Source: Minisyncoccia bacterium
Lineage (GTDB): Bacteria; Patescibacteriota; Minisyncoccia; Moranbacterales; GCA-2747515
Direction: 5' to 3'
Length of the DNA stretch: 64,000 nt
Assembly: GCA_041738235.1 (NCBI GenBank)
Contig: JBGSQF010000013.1
Location: forward strand, 321,899-385,898
Both the position numbers and the translations under genes were made by a program. Positions 2,888 through 40,364 of this stretch are shown piece by piece (within the stretch, counting starts at the first letter, position 1; every line of letters starts with the position of its first letter). The notes below the pieces were generated by a model, which saw only the letters and a list, made by a program, of their open reading frames with translations, was not told the origin of the DNA and searched no databases.

Positions 2888-4537
2888 TCAATAGCAGAGA
2901 TAGTTGTCGTTCCAGGTATGCGGATCGGAAGGCTCCAGCCATTGCACACACCGCTTCCCTCCAATTGGTCCGGCACTGGACCAGGAGAAGTTAAGCGGAC
3001 TGCTCGGTGGCACGCAGAGGTAGTTGTCGTTCCAAGTATGCGGGTCAGCGCTTTCTCTAATCTGCGTACAGCGCATCCCTCCGATCGATCCGGCGCTGTT
3101 CCAACGCATCCCGTAGTCCTGGGTTGCGCAGAAGTAGTTATCCATCCAGGTATGCGGGTCAGCTCCTTCCGAGATCTGCGTGCAGTAGGCCCCGGAAACG
3201 GGTCCGGCATAGGACCAGACAAAAGTGCCGTCGGGACTTGTGGGGAAGTTAGTTACCGTGAACCCCATCGTCTGGGCATTATTGCCTTCGTTAGACTCAT
3301 GCAGGTTTCCCTGGTAGTCGGCGTAACATTGATAGGTGCGAGTTCCTGTGTCTCCCAGTCGGAAGCTATTGCTTATGTACTCCATCTTTTTTGCTCCGAC
3401 TCGCATGTCGCCTGCATCGACACCGTCATCTCCACGGCGGTTTCCTTGATTGATTTGGTAGTCAATGCGGAAACCGTTTGGGGCGTCACGGTTACCCACG
3501 TTTTGCACCTCGCAATACGGGTTGACGTAAGAATCCTTTCGAATGAATCCTCCCTGTCGAATAACCCAACCGTTTACCTTGAGGTACAGGTCGGAAACGA
3601 TGAGGTCGGCCTTCCAAGGCACGACATGGTAGGTGGCGCTTTTGCAGTTGTTGGCTTCGTTTAGCTCCGGAAGCCAGCCTTTGGAGTCCACGCAACAGGT
3701 GTACGTGCGATCTCCGGTGTTGCCCAGCTTCCAGCTGTCCCAGACCACTTCCGTGGCAATTTCACCCACTCTCGATTCTCCGGGGTCAAGGAAGTCCTCG
3801 TCACGCTCACTGCCATCCATACGGTGCGATACCTTGACTTGCAGAGGCGAGTCGATCTCGCCCAGATTGGTCATCTCGCAGTACGGATGCCAATAGTTAT
3901 CCTCCAATAATGTGGCGCCGTTGTAGTAGCGAGCACCCGTTATGGCATCAGAGAAATAGACGTCGGTGACGGTGAGGTCGGGACGCAGGCTTGTGACCTC
4001 GTACCGTTCCACACGGCTCTTGTTGTCACCCTCGTCATACTCTTCGACTTCGTTCCTGAAGTCGATCTCGGTGCGGAAGGCGATTGAGGAGATACCATCG
4101 GGGATGATGTAATCCTTCGTCTCCGTGATCGTCTCGCCTTCGTCGAGCTTGGCGATGGTGATGTAGCCCGTTTGCCATTGGACCCATTCTCCATCGTCGA
4201 TTGACACGAGATACTTGATGTCGATGGTGTCGGCATTGTCCCTCGTCTTCCAATTCCCCGCGTCGCCTCCCACAGCCTTCACCGCGACGCGGTTTCTGGC
4301 TTTCATACCGGGAAGGAATTGATCGTGTCCGGCGTAGAGCTCGTTGCCGTCGACACCGAGGATATCGGTGTCGTTTTTGAGGTTGACGGGGTCGAGGGGT
4401 TGAGGGTCGGTGGGATCAGATGTTGATCCGCCCGCTCCCGAGGTTGTAACAGTGATAGTAACTCCCTCGCAATCGGAAGCGAATGCCTCCGGAAGCAGAA
4501 GGAATAATGCAGTGACGAACAGTATGCCATATCTCAT
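2888..4537 (-). CDS. secreted repeat protein (549 aa) with CARDB-like segments and three C-terminal ~45-aa Cys repeats (C..DPHTW.DNY.C)
   Basis: ATG at 4537 with SD GGAGGAAAT upstream. Signal peptide MRYGILFVTALFLLLPEAFA. Three C-terminal ~130-nt tandem coding repeats. Elevated GC (~55%). The longer ORF start at 4663 overlaps the upstream gene and lacks an RBS. Confidence 0.7.
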   Translation of the reverse strand: MRYGILFVTALFLLLPEAFASDCEGVTITVTTSGAGGSTSDPTDPQPLDPVNLKNDTDILGVDGNELYAGHDQFLPGMKARNRVAVKAVGGDAGNWKTRDNADTIDIKYLVSIDDGEWVQWQTGYITIAKLDEGETITETKDYIIPDGISSIAFRTEIDFRNEVEEYDEGDNKSRVERYEVTSLRPDLTVTDVYFSDAITGARYYNGATLLEDNYWHPYCEMTNLGEIDSPLQVKVSHRMDGSERDEDFLDPGESRVGEIATEVVWDSWKLGNTGDRTYTCCVDSKGWLPELNEANNCKSATYHVVPWKADLIVSDLYLKVNGWVIRQGGFIRKDSYVNPYCEVQNVGNRDAPNGFRIDYQINQGNRRGDDGVDAGDMRVGAKKMEYISNSFRLGDTGTRTYQCYADYQGNLHESNEGNNAQTMGFTVTNFPTSPDGTFVWSYAGPVSGAYCTQISEGADPHTWMDNYFCATQDYGMRWNSAGSIGGMRCTQIRESADPHTWNDNYLCVPPSSPLNFSWSSAGPIGGKRCVQWLEPSDPHTWNDNYLCY

Positions 4538-4580
4538 GGCCGGATTTCCTCCGTTTTTGGGTTGATTGGTTGACATGTGA

Positions 4581-5300
4581 TCACTTGATGCACATGTCAC
4601 CTTTACCGAAGAGTGCATCATAGCTGACATCGTCCGGGTAATGCACCTGGAAGATGTCCGCACACACAGGCCAGGCGTACGTTCTCACGATCTGTCGGTT
4701 GCTGTCGAGTCCGTACCAGGCTTGTGCTTTGATGCACGAGGTGTCGAAGGGGTACCAGGCGTAGTTACCGACCTTGCGGACGGTGAACTGGTTGCCGGGG
4801 ATGGTGGCGGGGTCTTTCTCGTAGATGAACCCACGGAGGGTCCAACTGCCCTTAACATCAGATCCAAGATCCGTATTACGGTGATAAGTGTTACCGCTTC
4901 CTGGGTAGTAAGTGGCGTGATTAATGCCATCCTCAAACCCCTGGCTCTTATACCAATCCATCTCCAAAACATCGAAAGATCCGTCGGTGTATGCCTCCTC
5001 GACGTAAGCGACATGGCCTTCGAACTCCGCGATTGCGCCATCTTTCGGCTCGAACCCGACCATGAAGTCCAGGTTCCGAAGCTTATCGGACCACTGTCCG
5101 CCGTTCCATCCACTTCCGGTTATCGCCGAGGCGATGTCCGGGCGTTTGTATGCGGCCCACCAGGTGCAGTTTCCATGGTCACCACACTCGAAATGGCTCG
5201 TCGTGGACGTATATCCATAACACACCGAGTCACCAGCCAGCGCATTCACTCCGAAGAAAAACACGCAGACGCCAATCAGCCGAGCAAGTAAATTGCTCAT
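4581..5300 (-). CDS. secreted CHAP-domain peptidoglycan hydrolase/amidase
   Basis: Signal peptide. CHAP signature with Cys in GNCTWWAAY and downstream His in GHVAYVE. GC about 55%. Confidence 0.7.
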   Translation of the reverse strand: MSNLLARLIGVCVFFFGVNALAGDSVCYGYTSTTSHFECGDHGNCTWWAAYKRPDIASAITGSGWNGGQWSDKLRNLDFMVGFEPKDGAIAEFEGHVAYVEEAYTDGSFDVLEMDWYKSQGFEDGINHATYYPGSGNTYHRNTDLGSDVKGSWTLRGFIYEKDPATIPGNQFTVRKVGNYAWYPFDTSCIKAQAWYGLDSNRQIVRTYAWPVCADIFQVHYPDDVSYDALFGKGDMCIK

Positions 5301-6659: not shown

Positions 6660-9600
6660 CTACCACGTCCACGGATTCCACAATACAAAATTCTTAGTAG
6701 GTCGTGTCAAAGCTGGAGGAGTGACGGATTGTTGCGTCTGTTGAGTTTCTTGGGTTGAATTCGTTGGGTTTTGGATTTCTTCTGTGACTTGTCTTTCTGT
6801 ACGTGCTCCTTGCACACTCCCCTCTTCTGCTTGAGTTTGCGTTTCTGTCTGTGATGATACTTGTTGTATCTGACTTACGTAGTTTAGTACAATCGAAGTA
6901 TCTACTCTGTTTCCCGCTTTATCATAGGCTCGAATATTGAGAAGATACGTTCCAAGAGGAAGAGATTCGGGAAGAAGATAAAAAGACTCTTCAACACCTT
7001 GTCTTCTCCAAGACTTTAGAACTTTTCCATTCATATCGACAAGTTGAACCTTATAATAGGAAAGACCCGATCCATTAGGATTGTCAGCTGCAAGAAAATC
7101 TATTCTCTCTTTTCTGGTGAGAGTCTTTTTTTCTGGAAGAGGATTAATGAAAAAGGGATCGGTCTTATCAGTGATAAGAGTAAAGAAGTCAGAGATATCT
7201 GATCTATTCCCAGTGCTATCGATATAGCGTACGGCATATTGATTTTTTCCTTCCTTACTAGAAAGATTGAAGTTCCAAGAGCCCTTCTCATTTATAGAGA
7301 TAGTTTTGAGTTTTTTAGTACCTCCTTTATCTGTTTTGGTATAGAGAGTTATGGTTCCATTTCTTGCTTTTGGATTCTTTCCCTTAAGTCTGGGAGTGGT
7401 ATCGGATCGATAGTTAACATCTTTGAAAGAAATAGATTCCTCATTAGCAGAAAGGTTGCTCTTATTGTCATTTTGGAATTGTTCAAGGTTGGATTCTGAA
7501 GTTTGAAGCGTGGCGGAGTGAATGACAGGAGTGATATTGGGATCTTGTGTAGAAAGAGTTGCTTTCCAAGTAAAATTATTTGCTTTGGTATACTGGGGAA
7601 ATGTTATGGGAGGAGTGAAATCAGCCCAAGTAGATCCGTTGTCTATTGAGTATTGATACTCAATGCTAGTGCCTTCTGGAATCGTTTGATCTGTCTGGAA
7701 AGAGAGGAGTTCATTGGTATTTGGGAAAGAGAGGGTTTGTGAGGTGTAAGTGCCTGAATCAGAGATAAAAAGTCCGTCCTCTTGCCGAGCATATTTGATC
7801 TCCACGCTATCAAGGCTGGGCGTAATGGAATTGTCTTGAGTCGCAAGAACTGCCTTATAGCGAAAGTTGCGGGATAAGTTAACAGGCAGAGCATAAATGC
7901 CAGGATCGGTTCCCAAACTTGTGTATGTTTGACCTTCATCAAAAGAGTAGAACATTTCTATAGAAGTTCCTTCGGGAATAGTGGCTTCCCAAGATAGCTC
8001 AGAATACACCTCTTTTTGGTACGTGTCGGAAATATATTCTAAAGAAAAAAAATAATTCGTATCAAGAACGTTCGTATCTGAATCATTGTCCACATCGGTA
8101 CAGAGATCTGTATTTGATCCTCCAATAGCATAAATCCCACCATTTACCAACTCAGTTGATACTCTATTGAGACCAGTTGGTAATATCCCAATAATATCCC
8201 ATTTATCGTACTCCGGGTCATAGCTATATATATCCTTTGCACGAATAAGCGCATCATCTTTTCCTCCAATATATATAAGCTTACCATTTATAACTACCGT
8301 ATCACCACCACCTCGATATGAAGGCAGAAATGCCAAATCCGTATCCCATGTATCCGTGGCTGGATCATAACTTGCCATAGAGTTGGACACCATACCATCA
8401 CAATCCCGCCTCGCCCCAACGATATACAACTTTCCATTAATAAATTGACCCGAAGCCTGATTCATTTTTACAACAGGGGCAGGTGTTCCGGCCTCCCAAG
8501 TATCTGTTTCTGGATCATAGATCTCCATCTCAGTAGATGAAAGACCAGAACAATCTAAACCACCACTAATGTAGACAGGACCACCTCCCACGACATAGAT
8601 CTTCCCGTTATATACTCCTCCGACAGCTCCTTCCCTCACCCGACTCATAGGTGCGCCCGCTGTCCAAGTATCCGTTTCTGGGTCATATATTTCTACAGAA
8701 GAAAGTTCTGTCTTTGTAGGATAAACTCCGGTAGCACCTCCAAAGACATAGAGTTTGCTATCGTACGCAACAACCATTGGTCTCGTTCTTGTTTGCACCA
8801 TTGGGGATTTAGTCTCCCATGTATCGGTTGCTGTGTCGTAAACCAATAATGTATTATGTCCGCAATTTCCACAACTCATCTTTCCCCCACCCACAACATA
8901 TATTTTTGAACCAATAACAGCACTTCCCGCGCCTTTTGTCTCTTCGGGAAGAGGCGCTTTGTTTTGCCAAGTGTCACTCGATTCAGCATATACGGTTTTA
9001 ACATAAACTCCCTCACTATTATATACGTTATCTATATCAACAACCGAAAGACCGCTTTTATTATCCTCTTCATAGAAAGCCCCTGATTCACTCTTTTTGA
9101 CACTAACATACAAAAGATGATGAGTACCATCCAGAAAAGAATTGTGAACGCTATTATTTACGATTTCTGGAGTTGAAACATTATTATACGTTTTGACCAA
9201 AACATCATCTGCTGGACTCACTGTTCCCCGTGTATCAATAACCGAGAGGGCACCATTATTAATATTGGGATCATTTTTACTACTTACATATAAGAGATCG
9301 TTCGCAGAATCTAAAAAGGCATGCACTACATAATTATTCGCTATCGCTGGGGTGGTAGTTGTTTTATAAGTGATCACCAAAACATCGTCAGTGGCGGTCA
9401 CAGTTCCTTGCGTGTTGATCACGGTAAGACCACCCCCTAAAGTCCCCACATACAAAAGGTTATGCACCGAATCCATAAAGGAGTACGAAACATTGTTACC
9501 CCCGATCGCTGGGGTGGTAGTTGTTTTATAAGTGATCACCAAAACATCGTCAGTGGCGGTCACAGTTCCTTGCGTGTTGATCACGGTAAGACCACCACTT

Positions 9601-10436
9601 GTACTAACGTAAAGGAGATGCGTCGTCTCATCCAAGAAAGCATGCGATACGGAATTATGTCCTATCGCAGGTGTGGTGGTAGTTTTGTATGTTTTTACAA
9701 GTGTGTCATCACCAGCGCTGACCGTTCCTTGCGTGTTGATCACGGTAAGACCTCCACCCAAAGTAGCTATATAGAGAAGATTACGTAAATCATCAAGAAA
9801 AGCATATTTAACAGTGCTGTCATCGATTGCTGGGGTTGTAGTAGTGGTGTAGGTAGTAACCAAAACATCATCAGAGGGAGAAACAGTTCCTTGCGTGTTG
9901 ATCACAGATAATCCCTGACCATCAATGCTTATGTAGAGAAGATCGTTCTTTAAGAATGAGTTATGTATCATATTCCCGGGCAATGCTGGAGTCGATTCTG
10001 TGGAGTAAGTAATAATCAAACTGTCATCAGTTGGATCAACGGTATTACGCGTGTCTATAACTGAAACGCCTAATGAAGTATTAATATACAAAAGACCCTT
10101 AGAGACATCGAGAAATGAACTCCCTGTATTCCTGCTACTAAGCCCCGCAAAAGATCCGCTGGAATATAAATAACTTTTACCAAGAGTTACTTTCCCCTCA
10201 CCATTACGTGAAACTCTTGTAACAAGAGGACTATTATTTACGTAACCTGAATTAAAATCTCCGTCTGTGGTATCTGTATGAATGGTAGTTTTATATTTTA
10301 GACGTAAGTCTCCCGGAATTTGATAAAGATCAATATTTTCATCAGTTGTCCCCATCTCCCAATCCTCCTGAGAAGTAAAAACTTGCCCCTGACTTGAGGC
10401 GTAGACGAACTGCAAAGAAAAAAAGGGGGCCAACAA
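6660..10436 (-). CDS. giant secreted surface protein (1258 aa): YVTN-like beta-propeller repeats, Kelch-repeat propeller, Ig/FN3-like domains, Gln/Thr-rich C-terminus
   Basis: Six or seven ~54-aa repeats LLYV..GGGLTV(I)NTQGTV...TTTTPAI. Kelch-like blades (KIYVVGGG, KLYVFGG, YDPETDTW). The annotated start is TTG. A canonical signal peptide lies upstream in another frame (see findings). Confidence 0.75.
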   Translation of the reverse strand: MLAPFFSLQFVYASSQGQVFTSQEDWEMGTTDENIDLYQIPGDLRLKYKTTIHTDTTDGDFNSGYVNNSPLVTRVSRNGEGKVTLGKSYLYSSGSFAGLSSRNTGSSFLDVSKGLLYINTSLGVSVIDTRNTVDPTDDSLIITYSTESTPALPGNMIHNSFLKNDLLYISIDGQGLSVINTQGTVSPSDDVLVTTYTTTTTPAIDDSTVKYAFLDDLRNLLYIATLGGGLTVINTQGTVSAGDDTLVKTYKTTTTPAIGHNSVSHAFLDETTHLLYVSTSGGLTVINTQGTVTATDDVLVITYKTTTTPAIGGNNVSYSFMDSVHNLLYVGTLGGGLTVINTQGTVTATDDVLVITYKTTTTPAIANNYVVHAFLDSANDLLYVSSKNDPNINNGALSVIDTRGTVSPADDVLVKTYNNVSTPEIVNNSVHNSFLDGTHHLLYVSVKKSESGAFYEEDNKSGLSVVDIDNVYNSEGVYVKTVYAESSDTWQNKAPLPEETKGAGSAVIGSKIYVVGGGKMSCGNCGHNTLLVYDTATDTWETKSPMVQTRTRPMVVAYDSKLYVFGGATGVYPTKTELSSVEIYDPETDTWTAGAPMSRVREGAVGGVYNGKIYVVGGGPVYISGGLDCSGLSSTEMEIYDPETDTWEAGTPAPVVKMNQASGQFINGKLYIVGARRDCDGMVSNSMASYDPATDTWDTDLAFLPSYRGGGDTVVINGKLIYIGGKDDALIRAKDIYSYDPEYDKWDIIGILPTGLNRVSTELVNGGIYAIGGSNTDLCTDVDNDSDTNVLDTNYFFSLEYISDTYQKEVYSELSWEATIPEGTSIEMFYSFDEGQTYTSLGTDPGIYALPVNLSRNFRYKAVLATQDNSITPSLDSVEIKYARQEDGLFISDSGTYTSQTLSFPNTNELLSFQTDQTIPEGTSIEYQYSIDNGSTWADFTPPITFPQYTKANNFTWKATLSTQDPNITPVIHSATLQTSESNLEQFQNDNKSNLSANEESISFKDVNYRSDTTPRLKGKNPKARNGTITLYTKTDKGGTKKLKTISINEKGSWNFNLSSKEGKNQYAVRYIDSTGNRSDISDFFTLITDKTDPFFINPLPEKKTLTRKERIDFLAADNPNGSGLSYYKVQLVDMNGKVLKSWRRQGVEESFYLLPESLPLGTYLLNIRAYDKAGNRVDTSIVLNYVSQIQQVSSQTETQTQAEEGSVQGARTERQVTEEIQNPTNSTQETQQTQQSVTPPALTRPTKNFVLWNPWTW

Positions 10437-15526: not shown

Positions 15527-15573
15527 CACCACTTTTCCCCACTTATCTGCTATTTTACTCCACCAGCCCACAC
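15527..15573 (-). promoter_or_regulatory. candidate MraZ operator: direct GTGG(G/T) repeats upstream of mraZ
   Basis: On the minus strand GTGGG, GTGGAG, GTGGGG and GTGGTG lie 70-120 nt upstream of mraZ. The last two have 10-nt spacing, as in known MraZ boxes. Confidence 0.35.
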
Positions 15574-15742
15574 TCGTCAACACGAGTTATCCACCGCTCT
15601 CCACGATGACTCTCAAATACCCCTATCTCCTCAAATGATCGCCGATCCAAGCCCTTGATGGCCGGTATTTTCTCCCTAAAGACCTTCTACCCAATAAAAA
15701 AACCACCTTTCGGCGTTCATATCCTTTCTGAAATTACTTCAC

Positions 15743-15794
15743 CGCCCGCACAAGTTCTCTTCTTCACGATGTGAAGCTAAGAATTGTGCGGGCG
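15743..15794. promoter_or_regulatory. long GC-rich inverted repeat (15-bp stem, 21-nt loop) immediately 3' of the GC-rich gene
   Basis: CGCCCGCACAAGTTCT ... AGAATTGTGCGGGCG, with a nested mini-palindrome TTCACGATGTGAA in the loop. Confidence 0.4.
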
Positions 15795-15801
15795 ACAGCC
15801 C

Positions 15802-16239
15802 CTACGCGCATACTCCGGTGCACTCAGGGTGTGGTTGTGGGTTCGGCGGTGGGTTCGGAACCTCCTGCCCCGAGTCCGCCGACCACACCCGAGGCGGTGA
15901 GATACGATTGCGCCACCACGGGTCGGTGGCTTCTCGTTCGTCGTCCTCCTCCTCGAGAGGGGGTGGGGTAACCCCGCGTTCAATCGGGGGATGCATCAAC
16001 GCCTCCCCGTCAGGAGCTGGTAGCGTCTCCGCTGGTGGCTCCACCGCCAGCTCCTCGTCCGTCAGCCCCAGGTTCCCGTACTCGTCCGTGACGGGATCCG
16101 CACTTGCCAGCGACGTCCATGTCGCCAACAAAACGAGTAGGATTAGGATGGTGACGGCCGTCACCCACCCCCACCCCTTCTGAGAACGTGGTATCTCATC
16201 GTTCGGGTCCCACACTTCCACTTTGTTATCCTCCAGCAA
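15802..16239 (-). CDS. GC-rich (~62%) Pro/Glu-rich membrane-anchored hypothetical protein
   Basis: 145-aa ORF with an N-terminal TM (VTAVTILILLVLLATW) and a Pro-rich tail. Strong compositional contrast with its ~40% GC flanks. Confidence 0.5.
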   Translation of the reverse strand: MLEDNKVEVWDPNDEIPRSQKGWGWVTAVTILILLVLLATWTSLASADPVTDEYGNLGLTDEELAVEPPAETLPAPDGEALMHPPIERGVTPPPLEEEDDEREATDPWWRNRISPPRVWSADSGQEVPNPPPNPQPHPECTGVCA

Positions 16240-16379
16240 ATTTTTGGGGAATTTGAAAAAAGCACCCTCCTATCCCCAGGTTGAAAGGTACTGTCTCCAA
16301 TATTAGCACATATTGTATATTTTGTCAATAGCTAAGATGGGGATCCTCGCACCCCAAAAAACCGCAAGAGAGATCTCTT

Positions 16380-17084
16380 CTATGTCGCAAGACTGAAGAA
16401 AAAGATAAGCGCGTTGGAAAGTATGAACTGTATCGGACCCGAAAAGAATATAATGATAAAAAGCAGCAGGACCATCCCATACTGTTCAAAAAGGATCTGT
16501 GCCTCTTGTGAAAAAGGAAATATCGTATAGAGAAGTTTCGATCCGTCCAAAGGAGGAATGGGGATCAAGTTAAAGAACGCCAAAATAACGTTCCAAAAAA
16601 TGATCATAATACATACCTCATAGAAGATACCTCCCAACGATCCCGCTACCACATCTGCTGTACCACTCCAATCACGACTAAACATCAACTCCTGAATATT
16701 TTGCTTCATCAAGATCGGGATCAGTGTCAACTTTGCCAGAATGGCCGCAGTTATCGCGATCACAATGTTCGTTCCCGGCCCAGCAAGCGCTACAAGCAAA
16801 GGGCCCCACTTCTGATCCCAGAGATTGTACGGATTATAGGGAACTGGCTTCGCCCATCCAAATGCCATCTGAAAGTTCGATATTAATAAGAGAAATATCG
16901 GTACGATCACTGACCCCCATGGATCAACATGACTCATTGGTTTGAGCGTGAGTCGTCCGGCATACTGCGCCGTGCGATCTCCCAACCATAGGGCCACTAC
17001 ACCATGTGAAACCTCGTGCAAAATAATGGAGTACAGCAAAATAAGCAGATAAACCCCAATAAGAATAAATTCATGCATATACAA
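16380..17084 (-). CDS. site-2 protease family zinc metalloprotease (peptidase M50)
   Basis: HEXXH in a TM helix (ILHEVSHGVVA), polytopic membrane protein, downstream LDG motif (PPLDGSK). Confidence 0.7.
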   Translation of the reverse strand: MYMHEFILIGVYLLILLYSIILHEVSHGVVALWLGDRTAQYAGRLTLKPMSHVDPWGSVIVPIFLLLISNFQMAFGWAKPVPYNPYNLWDQKWGPLLVALAGPGTNIVIAITAAILAKLTLIPILMKQNIQELMFSRDWSGTADVVAGSLGGIFYEVCIMIIFWNVILAFFNLIPIPPLDGSKLLYTIFPFSQEAQILFEQYGMVLLLFIIIFFSGPIQFILSNALIFFFSLAT

Positions 17085-33527: not shown

Positions 33528-33556
33528 TTGACACTTATCAATAATAATGCTATAAT
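33528..33556 (+). promoter_or_regulatory. consensus sigma70-type promoter (TTGACA-17-TATAAT) driving the GC-rich small gene
   Basis: Perfect -35 (33528-33533) and -10 (33551-33556) with a 17-nt spacer. Followed by a ~120-nt GC-rich structured leader (hairpin TGGAGGA-ACCC-TCCTCCA) and SD AAAGGAG before the ATG at 33680. Confidence 0.55.
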
Positions 33557-33679
33557 ATACGGTTAATTTTCGTTCCTTAAAATGGCGTGAAACTTCTCGC
33601 GAGCATGGTGTGGAGGAACCCTCCTCCACGACTCACTCGCGGGAAACCCCCGCAATCCACATACAGAAAAGGAGCAGAA

Positions 33680-34060
33680 ATGAAGCCCGAGCGAGTTCTA
33701 GCTTTCGGAATATCAGTCATGGTGGCATTGGCCATTTGGCTCTGGGTCGAAGGGCGGGAGGAGGTGCGGGTGCGGGAGATCACTCACGCTCTCCAGCACC
33801 TCAACCGCGGAGACGCGGTCATCTTCCGCGACGGACGTCACGGGGAGGTTGTCCAAGGAAGGGAGTCTCCGCCAGTGGGGATCAGCACCCTGGACGGCGA
33901 GATGACCCTCCCGATCGTCATCATGGAGATCTATGGTCCAGGTGACGGGAAATGGGAGGGGCGGATGACGTACGCCGTCCACCGCGTCGGGGCGATCGCC
34001 CCAGACATCGAGAGGGTCGAGCTGAAGGGAGTTCCGGACCCCCGACCCACCACCCCATAG
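33680..34060 (+). CDS. GC-rich (~63%) small membrane-anchored hypothetical protein (126 aa)
   Basis: ATG with SD AAAGGAG. N-terminal TM (VLAFGISVMVALAIWLW). The ORF track start further upstream lies in the leader. Confidence 0.55.
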   Translation: MKPERVLAFGISVMVALAIWLWVEGREEVRVREITHALQHLNRGDAVIFRDGRHGEVVQGRESPPVGISTLDGEMTLPIVIMEIYGPGDGKWEGRMTYAVHRVGAIAPDIERVELKGVPDPRPTTP

Positions 34061-34092
34061 ATTCGTTTGCCGACGCGTTGGCGAACAAAAAC

Positions 34093-34130
34093 CCCGCTAC
34101 AAAAGATATGTAGCGGGTGTTTTCTTTTTA
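34093..34130. terminator. bidirectional rho-independent terminator
   Basis: Perfect 9-bp stem CCCGCTACA/TGTAGCGGG, then a T-rich run. Sits between convergent genes. Confidence 0.55.
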
Positions 34131-38749: not shown

Positions 38750-39183
38750 GGGGTTGTTTAGATTCGACAGGTTGTTATTTGACATAAGTAAGCAAGCCGG
38801 TTCACGCGCGGTAACACCGAAACCTTCTCCGCGCACTCGATAAGTGCAAACTTCATCACAAAAGCCAAAGACGCTATTGCGCGAGCATTTAGCACCTCTT
38901 TCGCTACCGCCCTGGCTTAATTGCCGAGGCCATCGAATTTCGTGACTCCTTATAACGAATGTTCGGTGTCATATGTATAAGGATAGTCCTCTTCCCCCTT
39001 CTCGAAGGAAGAAGGACGAAACCTCCGAGACCGCCTTAGATGTACTTTGTTTGTTTCTGGGCATCTTCGGTTGGTTCAGGTGAAGGGAAGTAATGCGCCT
39101 TTTATCTGTCAAACAAACTCTGCTTGAAGAAAGCTTTGTCATATCATCTCTGGACATGGGTGCAATTCCCATCAACTCCACCA
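38750..39183 (+). ncRNA. ssrA: tmRNA (ssrA), ~434 nt
   Basis: 5' GGGGTTGTTTAGATTCGACAGG matches the tmRNA consensus GGGGCUGAUUCUGGAUUCGACGGG. 3' GGACATGGGTGCAATTCCCATCAACTCCACCA matches the T-arm plus acceptor and encoded CCA. Acceptor pairs GGGGUUG/CAACUCC. In-frame tag ORF ends ...FATALA-TAA (stop 38918-38920). Lies just downstream of smpB. Confidence 0.8.
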
Positions 39184-40016: not shown

Positions 40017-40364
40017 ATGAGTCGAGTAAAACGAGGAGTAGCCGCTTCCAAACGGCGCAAGAACATCATTAAACAAGCAAAGGGATTCAAATGGAAAAGA
40101 AAATCCCATTATACCGCAGCCAAAGAGGCGGTGATCAAGGCAGGAAAGTATGCCTATCGAGATCGACGAACTAAAAAACGAGTGAATCGTCGCCTCTGGA
40201 TCACCCGACTCAACAATGCGGTACGTGAATTAGGGCTCACCTATCGAGAACTCATTCACCTCCAACAGGTAAAGAATAATACCCTGGACCGAAAAGTGCT
40301 TTCCGAAATGGCTGTAAAAGATCCGAAAATGTTTGCTCGCGTCATAGAGGAACTTAAGAAATAG
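40017..40364 (+). CDS. rplT: 50S ribosomal protein L20
   Basis: MSRVKRGVAASKRRKNIIKQAKGF...AGKYAYRDRRTKKR..RRLWITRLNNA, near-consensus L20. Confidence 0.9.
   Translation: MSRVKRGVAASKRRKNIIKQAKGFKWKRKSHYTAAKEAVIKAGKYAYRDRRTKKRVNRRLWITRLNNAVRELGLTYRELIHLQQVKNNTLDRKVLSEMAVKDPKMFARVIEELKK

Follow-up and report, generated by a model that had tools for sequence, protein, structure and literature searches.

A GC-rich, lineage-restricted orphan gene between an M50 protease gene and mraZ in a Moranbacteria chromosome: a candidate old foreign islet

The question raised by this locus is where a small GC-rich gene came from that stands on the minus strand of a 64-kb stretch of bacterial DNA (64,000 nt, hereafter the window, by which we mean the whole stretch that was analysed), with an M50 protease gene on one side and the mraZ-rsmH-ftsL-ftsI-murE cluster on the other. 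A sequence-only reading of this DNA had suggested that the gene was acquired horizontally from a high-GC donor, and had put forward Actinobacteria as the obvious candidate donor if the organism were an epibiont of that group. The premise did not survive: GyrB encoded in the window is 70–72% identical to proteins named Candidatus Moranbacteria or Moraniibacteriota, which places the organism in Moranbacteria (Parcubacteria, Patescibacteria) and not among the Saccharibacteria that live as epibionts of Actinobacteria, and with this placement the idea of a Saccharibacteria-like epibiont fails. To our knowledge no host is established for Moranbacteria, and our search of the literature found neither a Moranbacteria host nor a link between Moranbacteria and Actinobacteria. 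The description of the genome as AT-rich was also too strong, because the whole window has 44.7% GC and is thus only moderately low.

A mechanically called open reading frame at 15802–16239 on the minus strand encodes 145 aa from a TTG start. The public protein P0001 (139 aa, MEVWDPN...) and its homologue P0002 both start at the GTG at 16221–16219, and because this start is shared by the two proteins and a GGAGGA motif is present 7 nt upstream of it, the GTG is the likely true start and is preferred over the TTG. The gene, here called X, would then cover 15802–16221 and encode 139 aa. The features of the X unit are the following.

16300–16328, minus strand: promoter of X, sigma-70-type, TTGACA-17 nt-TAATAT with an extended -10 TG (consensus scan, 10/12 + TG)
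16240–16299, minus strand: 5' leader of X (fold; 91% identity to the related contig L001)
16229–16234, minus strand: Shine-Dalgarno sequence GGAGGA, 7 nt before the GTG (sequence reading)
15802–16221, minus strand: gene X, 139-aa protein (ORF calls, start of P0001, dN/dS 0.205 against L001)
15742–15795, minus strand: GC-rich 3' hairpin of X without a U tract (RNA fold; conservation in L001)
15697–15715, minus strand: putative small intrinsic terminator, CGCC-GAAA-GGUG followed by U7 (seen in the fold)

ORFs in the window that encode 100 aa or more have a mean GC of 0.456 (sd 0.044) and a mean GC3 of 0.450 (sd 0.069). X, with a GC of 0.632 for the 145-aa ORF or 0.645 in the codon analysis and a GC3 of 0.712, is about 4 sd higher than the window genes in both measures, and the earlier remark that it is far above the local GC holds. 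When the protein sequence was kept fixed and the codons were redrawn from the window's own usage, X was expected to have a GC of 0.553 ± 0.014 and a GC3 of 0.453 ± 0.040, so that the observed values exceed expectation by z = 6.6 for GC and z = 6.5 for GC3. The proposed check of GC3 and codon use against the genome, made here against the window, thus leaves X a GC3 outlier after its amino acids are controlled for. Amino-acid composition, which is rich in Pro, Ala, Gly and Glu, contributes roughly half of the excess in GC, and codon choice contributes the other half. Moreover, the protein itself looks as if it were the product of a GC-rich genome: GARP is 0.34 compared with 0.24 ± 0.04 for window proteins, FYMINK is 0.09 compared with 0.27 ± 0.05, and K/(K+R) is only 0.14 compared with 0.53 ± 0.14.

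In 5.8 billion protein clusters X has one homologue, P0002, which is 61% identical by BLASTP and 69% identical in a global alignment, and which sits on a 7.2-kb contig (L001) from a different sample. Gene order is common to the window and L001 (L28, M50 protease, X, mraZ, rsmH, ftsL, ftsI, murE), and the flanking proteins are 81–99% identical. Within X, differences between the two sequences number 37, 27 and 60 at codon positions 1, 2 and 3, with a dN/dS of 0.205 and a dS of 1.2; for the flanking genes dS is 0.7–1.05 and dN/dS 0.01–0.11. Several blocks of amino acids are kept despite synonymous changes, namely MEVWDPNDE, PVTDxYGN, EELAVEPPA, DDEREATDPWWRNRI and PHPECTGVCA. This pattern of substitution indicates that X is a genuine protein-coding gene under purifying selection. 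The orthologue in L001 has a GC of 0.62 and a GC3 of 0.66, among neighbours with a GC of 0.41–0.45 and on a contig with 43.5% GC.

An N-terminal transmembrane segment and a Pro/Glu-rich tail had been noticed in the product, and both are borne out. The hydropathy peak covers residues 17–40 and the AlphaFold model consists of one helix at 15–39 with the remainder as coil (pLDDT 45–60), which together put the helix at ~15–40; the tail of 98 aa contains 20% Pro, 22% Asp+Glu and 5% Lys+Arg and ends in PHPECTGVCA, so that a conserved CxxxC motif stands at the C-terminus. By eye, R12 and K15 are found before the helix and ASA|D after it (ALA|N in L001), which would suit a signal anchor of N-in/C-out topology as well as a signal peptide that is cleaved after ASA. 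The invariant acidic 9-mer at the N-terminus suggests a retained cytoplasmic tail and thus favours the anchor reading, by which X is predicted to be an anchored protein with a cytoplasmic N-terminal tail. More broadly, the product is predicted to be a membrane-anchored or secreted, disordered, acidic and proline-rich surface protein. Searches of Pfam, NCBIfam, PHROGs, PADLOC and PDB gave no family match for X or its orthologue, and the structure model, one helix plus disorder, is too poor to query folds. After synthesis the product would insert N-in/C-out or be cleaved after ASA, and its acidic, polyproline-like disordered tail of ~98 aa, with a C-terminal CxxxC loop, would be shown on the cell surface, where it most plausibly would make envelope or partner contact in an ultra-small, probably episymbiotic bacterium. 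Speculatively, the adjacent M50 site-2 protease could also act on X, judging from the N-in/C-out topology and the cytoplasmic 9-mer MEVWDPNDE.

Four sites in the 64-kb window pass the strict promoter filter, and two of them front X and a second GC-rich gene, Y (see below). The X promoter is one of the two among these four sites with a perfect TTGACA, and L001 carries TTGACA-17-TATAAA at the matching place. Transcription of X would start right after the -10 element. The stem-loop of the leader (16300–16253) has a core of GUACCUUUC and GGAGGGUGC, which is followed by U6 and then by CCCCAAAA. At the other end of the gene, the inverted repeat had been described as one of 15 bp, which is about right: its perfect arms are 11 nt long (15743–15753 and 15784–15794), and the folded RNA has an outer stem of 17 pairs that contains one bulge, followed by an internal loop and a 6-bp inner stem with an AUC loop. 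The hairpin is present as a single copy in the window, and the 121-nt stretch that includes it (15690–15810) folds with z = -4.1 compared with dinucleotide shuffles. Downstream of this large hairpin the sequence reads GGUGAAGUAAU, hence there is no U tract. The putative small terminator with U7 was missed by the consensus scanner, because it has 4 stem pairs and the scanner requires a minimum of 5.

Conservation of the non-coding elements was measured against a neutral benchmark, the 41% differences between the window and L001 at four-fold sites of the flanking genes, and ordinary neighbouring spacers are 48–52% identical between the two. The 60-nt leader (16299–16240) is 91% identical (P=4e-8 vs the neutral rate), the 3' hairpin is the same at 51 of 52 positions, loops included (P=4.5e-11 vs the neutral rate), the small terminator is 91% identical (P=1.2e-3; its stem is CGCC/GGCG in L001), and the mraZ promoter with its GTGG repeats is 93% identical (P=3.2e-10). 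The leader had no Rfam match and no second copy within the window. These comparisons clearly point to the leader and the 3' hairpin as selected non-coding elements without an Rfam family, and conservation of the hairpin loops appears to exceed what a terminator or stabiliser would need; of the X unit, only the leader and this hairpin might hold something new. The stem-loop at the 5'-end and the hairpin at the 3'-end would stabilise and delimit the X mRNA, and the U7 hairpin would be the actual terminator, shielding the mraZ promoter. The 5' stem-loop with its U6 could equally be an attenuator or a very small RNA.

A second GC-rich gene, at 33680–34060 on the plus strand, had been pointed out in the sequence-only reading, and its composition is indeed of this kind. 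The features of this Y unit are the following.

33528–33556, plus strand: promoter of Y, TTGACA-17 nt-TATAAT, 12/12 + TG (consensus scan)
33680–34060, plus strand: gene Y, 126-aa orphan with an N-terminal transmembrane helix (GC 0.64, GC3 0.76)
34065–34117, plus strand: tandem 3' hairpins of Y (folds, z=-5.0)

The leader of Y is structured and GC-rich (z=-3.9). Of the two 3' hairpins of Y, the first (34065–34086) has a GC stem of 9 bp and lacks a U tract, and the second (34093–34117) is a canonical terminator that can work in both directions. The layout of Y thus parallels that of X, with a consensus promoter, a leader, an ORF with a transmembrane helix, a U-less hairpin and a canonical terminator. 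Y matches itself alone in protein databases, a donor search for it found no relatives either, and its structure model (pLDDT 47, low confidence) does not suffice for a search by fold. A third GC3-rich block at 2888–5300 encodes CARDB and CHAP proteins with a GC3 of 0.65–0.67 (z=12 and 8.5). This block adjoins a tRNA-Glu, the last 19 nt of which are repeated exactly 194 nt downstream. X was also compared with Y and with the CARDB protein for paralogy or common flanks, and neither was found for either pair. GC3 outliers of the size of X number 3–4 in the window, compared with two in ~530 kb of other Parcubacteria loci, both of these at contig ends.

Searches for a donor extended from proteins to genomes and mobile elements. 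An exhaustive profile search with X (HMMER, 1.84 billion representatives) found, besides X itself, just P0012, which proved to be a spurious match to a repeat protein. The one match in GTDB representative genomes (L003) was a chance 8-mer, PVTDEYGN, in a repetitive Firmicutes lipoprotein, and X searched as an RNA gene gave only chance matches below threshold in Rfam. A donor homologue, for which BLAST-type searches had been proposed, did not appear: the sole homologue is P0002, from a low-GC sister organism and at the same locus. Around X we found no convincing flanking direct or terminal inverted repeats and no convincing target-site duplication, and Pfam scans, in which genes were tested across ~2.9–35 kb of the window, showed no integrase near X. 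An empty site was not recovered in the contigs of six closer GyrB relatives, which have another gene order after gyrB or end short of the junction (L088 ends inside M50). In 80 more distant JGI MraZ loci neither M50 nor X is present upstream of mraZ, and L001, the only relative for which the M50-mraZ junction was recovered, does contain X.

Because the two lineages that carry X have diverged at 41% of neutral four-fold sites, any transfer of the gene would predate their split and was not recent. Four-fold-site differences between the window and L001 are 0.43 in X and 0.41 in the flanking genes; an argument that saturation (dS ~1.2) rules out neutral amelioration was dropped, because these differences reach only 41–43%. 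GC4 of X is 0.64 in the window and 0.55 in L001, and that of the flanking genes is 0.42 and 0.38, respectively. By a simple F81 relaxation of our own calculation, approximately one third of the GC4 excess would be lost per lineage, and an ancestral GC4 of ~0.65–0.75 would suffice, in a test of two sequences and 47 four-fold sites where amelioration and maintained GC look alike. Neutral amelioration of an X that was acquired before the split of the two lineages is thus feasible.

The reading that we prefer, with a probability of roughly 0.55, is that X is a functional, lineage-restricted gene that originated as a foreign one-gene islet, is old and partly ameliorated, and has since been domesticated. 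Foreign origin is the most economical explanation because both codon and protein composition of X are atypical and such GC3 outliers are rare elsewhere. By this account an ancestor of two or more Moranbacteria lineages would have gained a single-gene segment, consisting of the ORF and the U-less GC hairpin, at a chromosomal site flanked by the M50 protease gene and the mraZ division operon. The segment would have come from a GC-richer organism or mobile element, perhaps an unsampled one, and would since then have been ameliorating slowly while it became domesticated. Of the horizontal acquisition proposed earlier, the atypical composition beyond amino-acid content stands, but no donor has been found and the event was not recent. 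Patescibacteria are reported to carry individually transferred genes as well as islands, up to 13% of genome length, and transfers into them come mostly from other Patescibacteria (PMC12455944).

Among the points against a foreign origin is the fold stability of the X mRNA, which leaves room for selection on codon GC. This is the core of a reading that we hold to be distinctly less probable, although it deserves weight, in which X is native and lineage-specific, possibly de novo, and its high GC is kept by selection, which would act at codon positions 1 and 2 through a disordered product rich in Pro, Ala, Gly and Glu and at position 3 through an mRNA that is stable and GC-rich. Such a gene would fit with the absence of a donor in any resource searched, with the G:C ratio at four-fold sites of ~2:1, as in host genes, and with the fact that the sole homologue, in a low-GC sister, is equally GC-rich. 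The sequence-only reading had itself named such a distribution, homologues confined to low-GC relatives and similarly high in GC, as a sign that Pro/Gly/Ala coding drives the composition; the distribution is literally what we find, but this coding explains only about half of the excess, which is the share that a native origin can draw on. The mRNAs of both orthologues fold better than synonymous-codon shuffles (z=-2.8 and -3.1). However, 20 control genes in the same fold test gave -0.66±1.15 with a minimum of -3.7, and one of the 20 has a more extreme z-score than X. Moreover, the structures predicted for the two orthologues have only 6 of ~145 pairs in common, and changed pairs are canonical no oftener than in shifted controls, that is, they are not preferentially compensated. 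Conserved mRNA structure as the cause of the high GC3 was therefore rejected, because the folds are stable but are not common to both orthologues. We also know of no mechanism that would lift GC3 in merely 3–4 genes for exported proteins, and the large excess of R over K together with the low FYMINK are classic marks of evolution in a GC-rich genome. Active maintenance of GC also enters a broader proposal, which we consider improbable: X and Y would exemplify a type of GC-rich orphan cassette in Moranbacteria that has not been described, self-contained and strongly expressed, with a consensus extended -10 promoter, structured leader, ORF for an exported (anchored or secreted) protein, U-less hairpin and canonical terminator. 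The leader (60 nt) and hairpin (52 nt) would then act in cis as novel elements at the RNA or DNA level, perhaps as sites of protein binding, recombination or attenuation.

Lateral acquisition could also have had a special form, with X as a moron-like cargo gene from a phage or another CPR mobile element. X stands as a self-contained unit, with a promoter and terminator around the ORF, and differs in composition from its neighbours, which would agree with this, as would the presence in the same window of the GC3-rich CARDB/CHAP island beside tRNA-Glu with its duplicated 19 nt of the tRNA 3' end. X nevertheless has no PHROGs match, no tblastn match in 50,697 phage records and no relatives in plasmids or IMG/VR, its neighbours M50, mraZ, rsmH, ftsL and ftsI are not phage genes, and att-like repeats are absent, so that we regard a moron-like origin as improbable. 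A recent transfer from the actinobacterial host of a Saccharibacteria-like epibiont is very improbable. The high GC itself would suit such a donor, and terminator hairpins without a U tract, which the X hairpin recalls, do occur in high-GC Actinobacteria. Against this, the organism belongs by its GyrB to Moranbacteria/Parcubacteria, exhaustive searches gave no actinobacterial homologue, and the divergence of the two lineages that share X, at 41% of neutral sites, is not that of a recent event. Very-high-GC Actinobacteria prefer GGC, GCC and CCG, whereas X and Y pooled use GGG at 59%, GGC at 5%, CCA at 38% and GCG more than GCC, and by this comparison their codon profile is GC-shifted, yet not actinobacterial. 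Of ~130 transfers inferred for Patescibacteria in an aquifer survey, 1 had Actinomycetota as the donor (PMC12455944). The nomination of Actinobacteria as donor is thus not upheld. Scarcely credible, finally, is the idea that the X segment is an artefact, by chimeric assembly or contamination, or that it is non-coding, as a structured RNA or an antisense gene. The GC-rich DNA of X does bear long ORFs in several frames, and the folding energy of the coding stretch is low. But the junctions of X in the window agree with those in two further assemblies, L002 and L001. The first of these may stem from the same data as the window, to which it is 100% identical, and L001 is from a different organism, with a nucleotide identity to the window of 69% inside X and 85% in the flanks. 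A non-coding X is likewise contradicted by substitutions of the coding type, by amino-acid blocks kept through synonymous changes, by the lack of an Rfam family and by an RNA structure that is not conserved.

If X is indeed a domesticated foreign islet, it would represent another case in which a streamlined CPR genome has fixed and domesticated a small gene of foreign origin that encodes a surface protein. Proteins of this type likely mediate contact with partner cells, which would make X and Y reasonable candidates for studies of the Moranbacteria surface. The locus also shows that a GC anomaly can last essentially undiminished over a neutral divergence of ~0.4 substitutions per site. Current understanding is unchanged by this locus: atypical-GC orphan islets and horizontal transfer in Patescibacteria are already on record, and X, as an atypical-GC orphan islet, is a known phenomenon in kind.

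Amelioration of laterally acquired, compositionally atypical genes is reportedly described by the model of Lawrence and Ochman. Genomic islets undergoing such amelioration and the single-gene transfers in Patescibacteria (PMC12455944) resemble X in that a single accessory gene with foreign GC, GC3 and amino-acid use is set between conserved housekeeping genes, in a narrow lineage and with an exported product. X differs from them in that no donor, mobility genes or empty site were found and in that the GC excess is equal in two well-diverged lineages. Phage morons are independent promoter-ORF-terminator units of differing GC inside prophages; X is alike in that a near-consensus promoter and a terminator of its own accompany it and that its composition departs from that of its neighbours, but it is chromosomal, between M50 and mraZ, outside a prophage and without phage homologues found. 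With integron cassettes and their attC sites X shares one short ORF and, directly behind it, an inverted repeat of ~52 nt that is imperfect and has a bulged base, but the X hairpin (CGCCCGCACAA...TTGTGCGGGCG) lacks the R''/R' cores (RYYYAAC...GTTRRRY), and X has its own promoter, no integrase nearby and no cassette array. Y is similar to YajC (PF02699) in that an N-terminal transmembrane helix is followed by a small beta-rich domain, with a weak profile match at residues 13–62; its score, 17.6 bits where 28.2 would be required (E=0.0036), shows, however, that it is not a member. The 3' hairpin of X, a long GC stem right after the stop codon and without a U run, is close to U-less ('I-shaped') terminators and 3' stabiliser hairpins, from which it differs by near-complete conservation that includes the loops (51/52). 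The leader of X resembles the 5' mRNA-stabilising stem-loops of the ompA or aprE type, having a stem-loop at the predicted 5'-end of the mRNA.

The surroundings of gene X (15802-16221), the GC-rich orphan, contain these features:

15529-15597, minus strand: block of 69 nt upstream of mraZ, 93% conserved relative to L001, the contig of a related organism that holds the sole orthologue of X
15580-15552, minus strand: mraZ promoter, TTGACG-17-TAAAAT, inside the 69-nt block
16380-17084: M50 site-2 protease gene, directly upstream of X

GTGG and AAGTGG motifs recur in the 69-nt block and are probably MraZ operator boxes. The predicted topology makes X a bitopic protein whose cytoplasmic side carries a conserved 9-mer, and it is conceivable that X would be a substrate of the adjacent protease. 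The dcw cluster, including ftsL, lies just downstream of X.

Within the window, only the promoter of Y, the second GC-rich orphan gene, combines a 12/12 sigma-70 match with an extended -10 (Y unit, 33528-34117), and the 124-nt leader that follows is strongly structured (z = -3.9), with the Shine-Dalgarno sequence base-paired in its predicted fold. Tandem hairpins lie on the 3′ side of Y. This layout is common to the X and Y units, while the two proteins are unrelated. Measured against synonymous-codon shuffles, the strongest surplus of mRNA folding among the 20 control genes (z = -3.7) belonged to a 115-aa ORF at 40017-40364 on the plus strand.

The single match to X among the GTDB representative genomes (L003, 796-1100) is a lipoprotein of a Firmicutes MAG with repeated VTD(E/K)xG(N/K)xVTD units, one of which matches PVTDEYGN of X exactly. 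We take this as a low-complexity match that arose by chance, since ∼90 such 8-mers would be expected in a search space of 596 Gb. In the contigs of closer relatives (L004-L006; GyrB 84-90% identical), the order of genes past gyrB is unlike that of the window, even where GyrB is 90% identical, and in each of them a region rich in glycosyltransferases holds a small gene of the 23S_rRNA_IVP / bAvd family:

L004, 14333-14683
L005, 18203-18601
L006, 15191-15544

Further features of the window are as follows:

2405-2480: tRNA-Glu, 3′-terminal 19 nt GAATCCCATACGCGGTACA
2888-5300: GC3-rich block adjoining the tRNA-Glu repeat, GC 0.55, GC3 0.65-0.67
6660-10436, minus strand: gene whose 1258-aa product combines Kelch beta-propeller repeats with a bacterial Ig-like (Big_13) domain
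38750-39183, plus strand: tmRNA, tag peptide ANFITKAKDAIARAFSTSFATALA

The 1258-aa product is probably a large surface protein. The final 19 nt of tRNA-Glu recur exactly at 2657-2675, 194 nt downstream, and this duplicated 3′ end looks like an att-site remnant. The adjoining block codes for two proteins, one of 591 aa that has a CARDB domain and, at its C-terminal end, DPHTWNDNYLC repeats, the other of 239 aa that has a CHAP domain; both are host-like in amino-acid composition but not in codon use.
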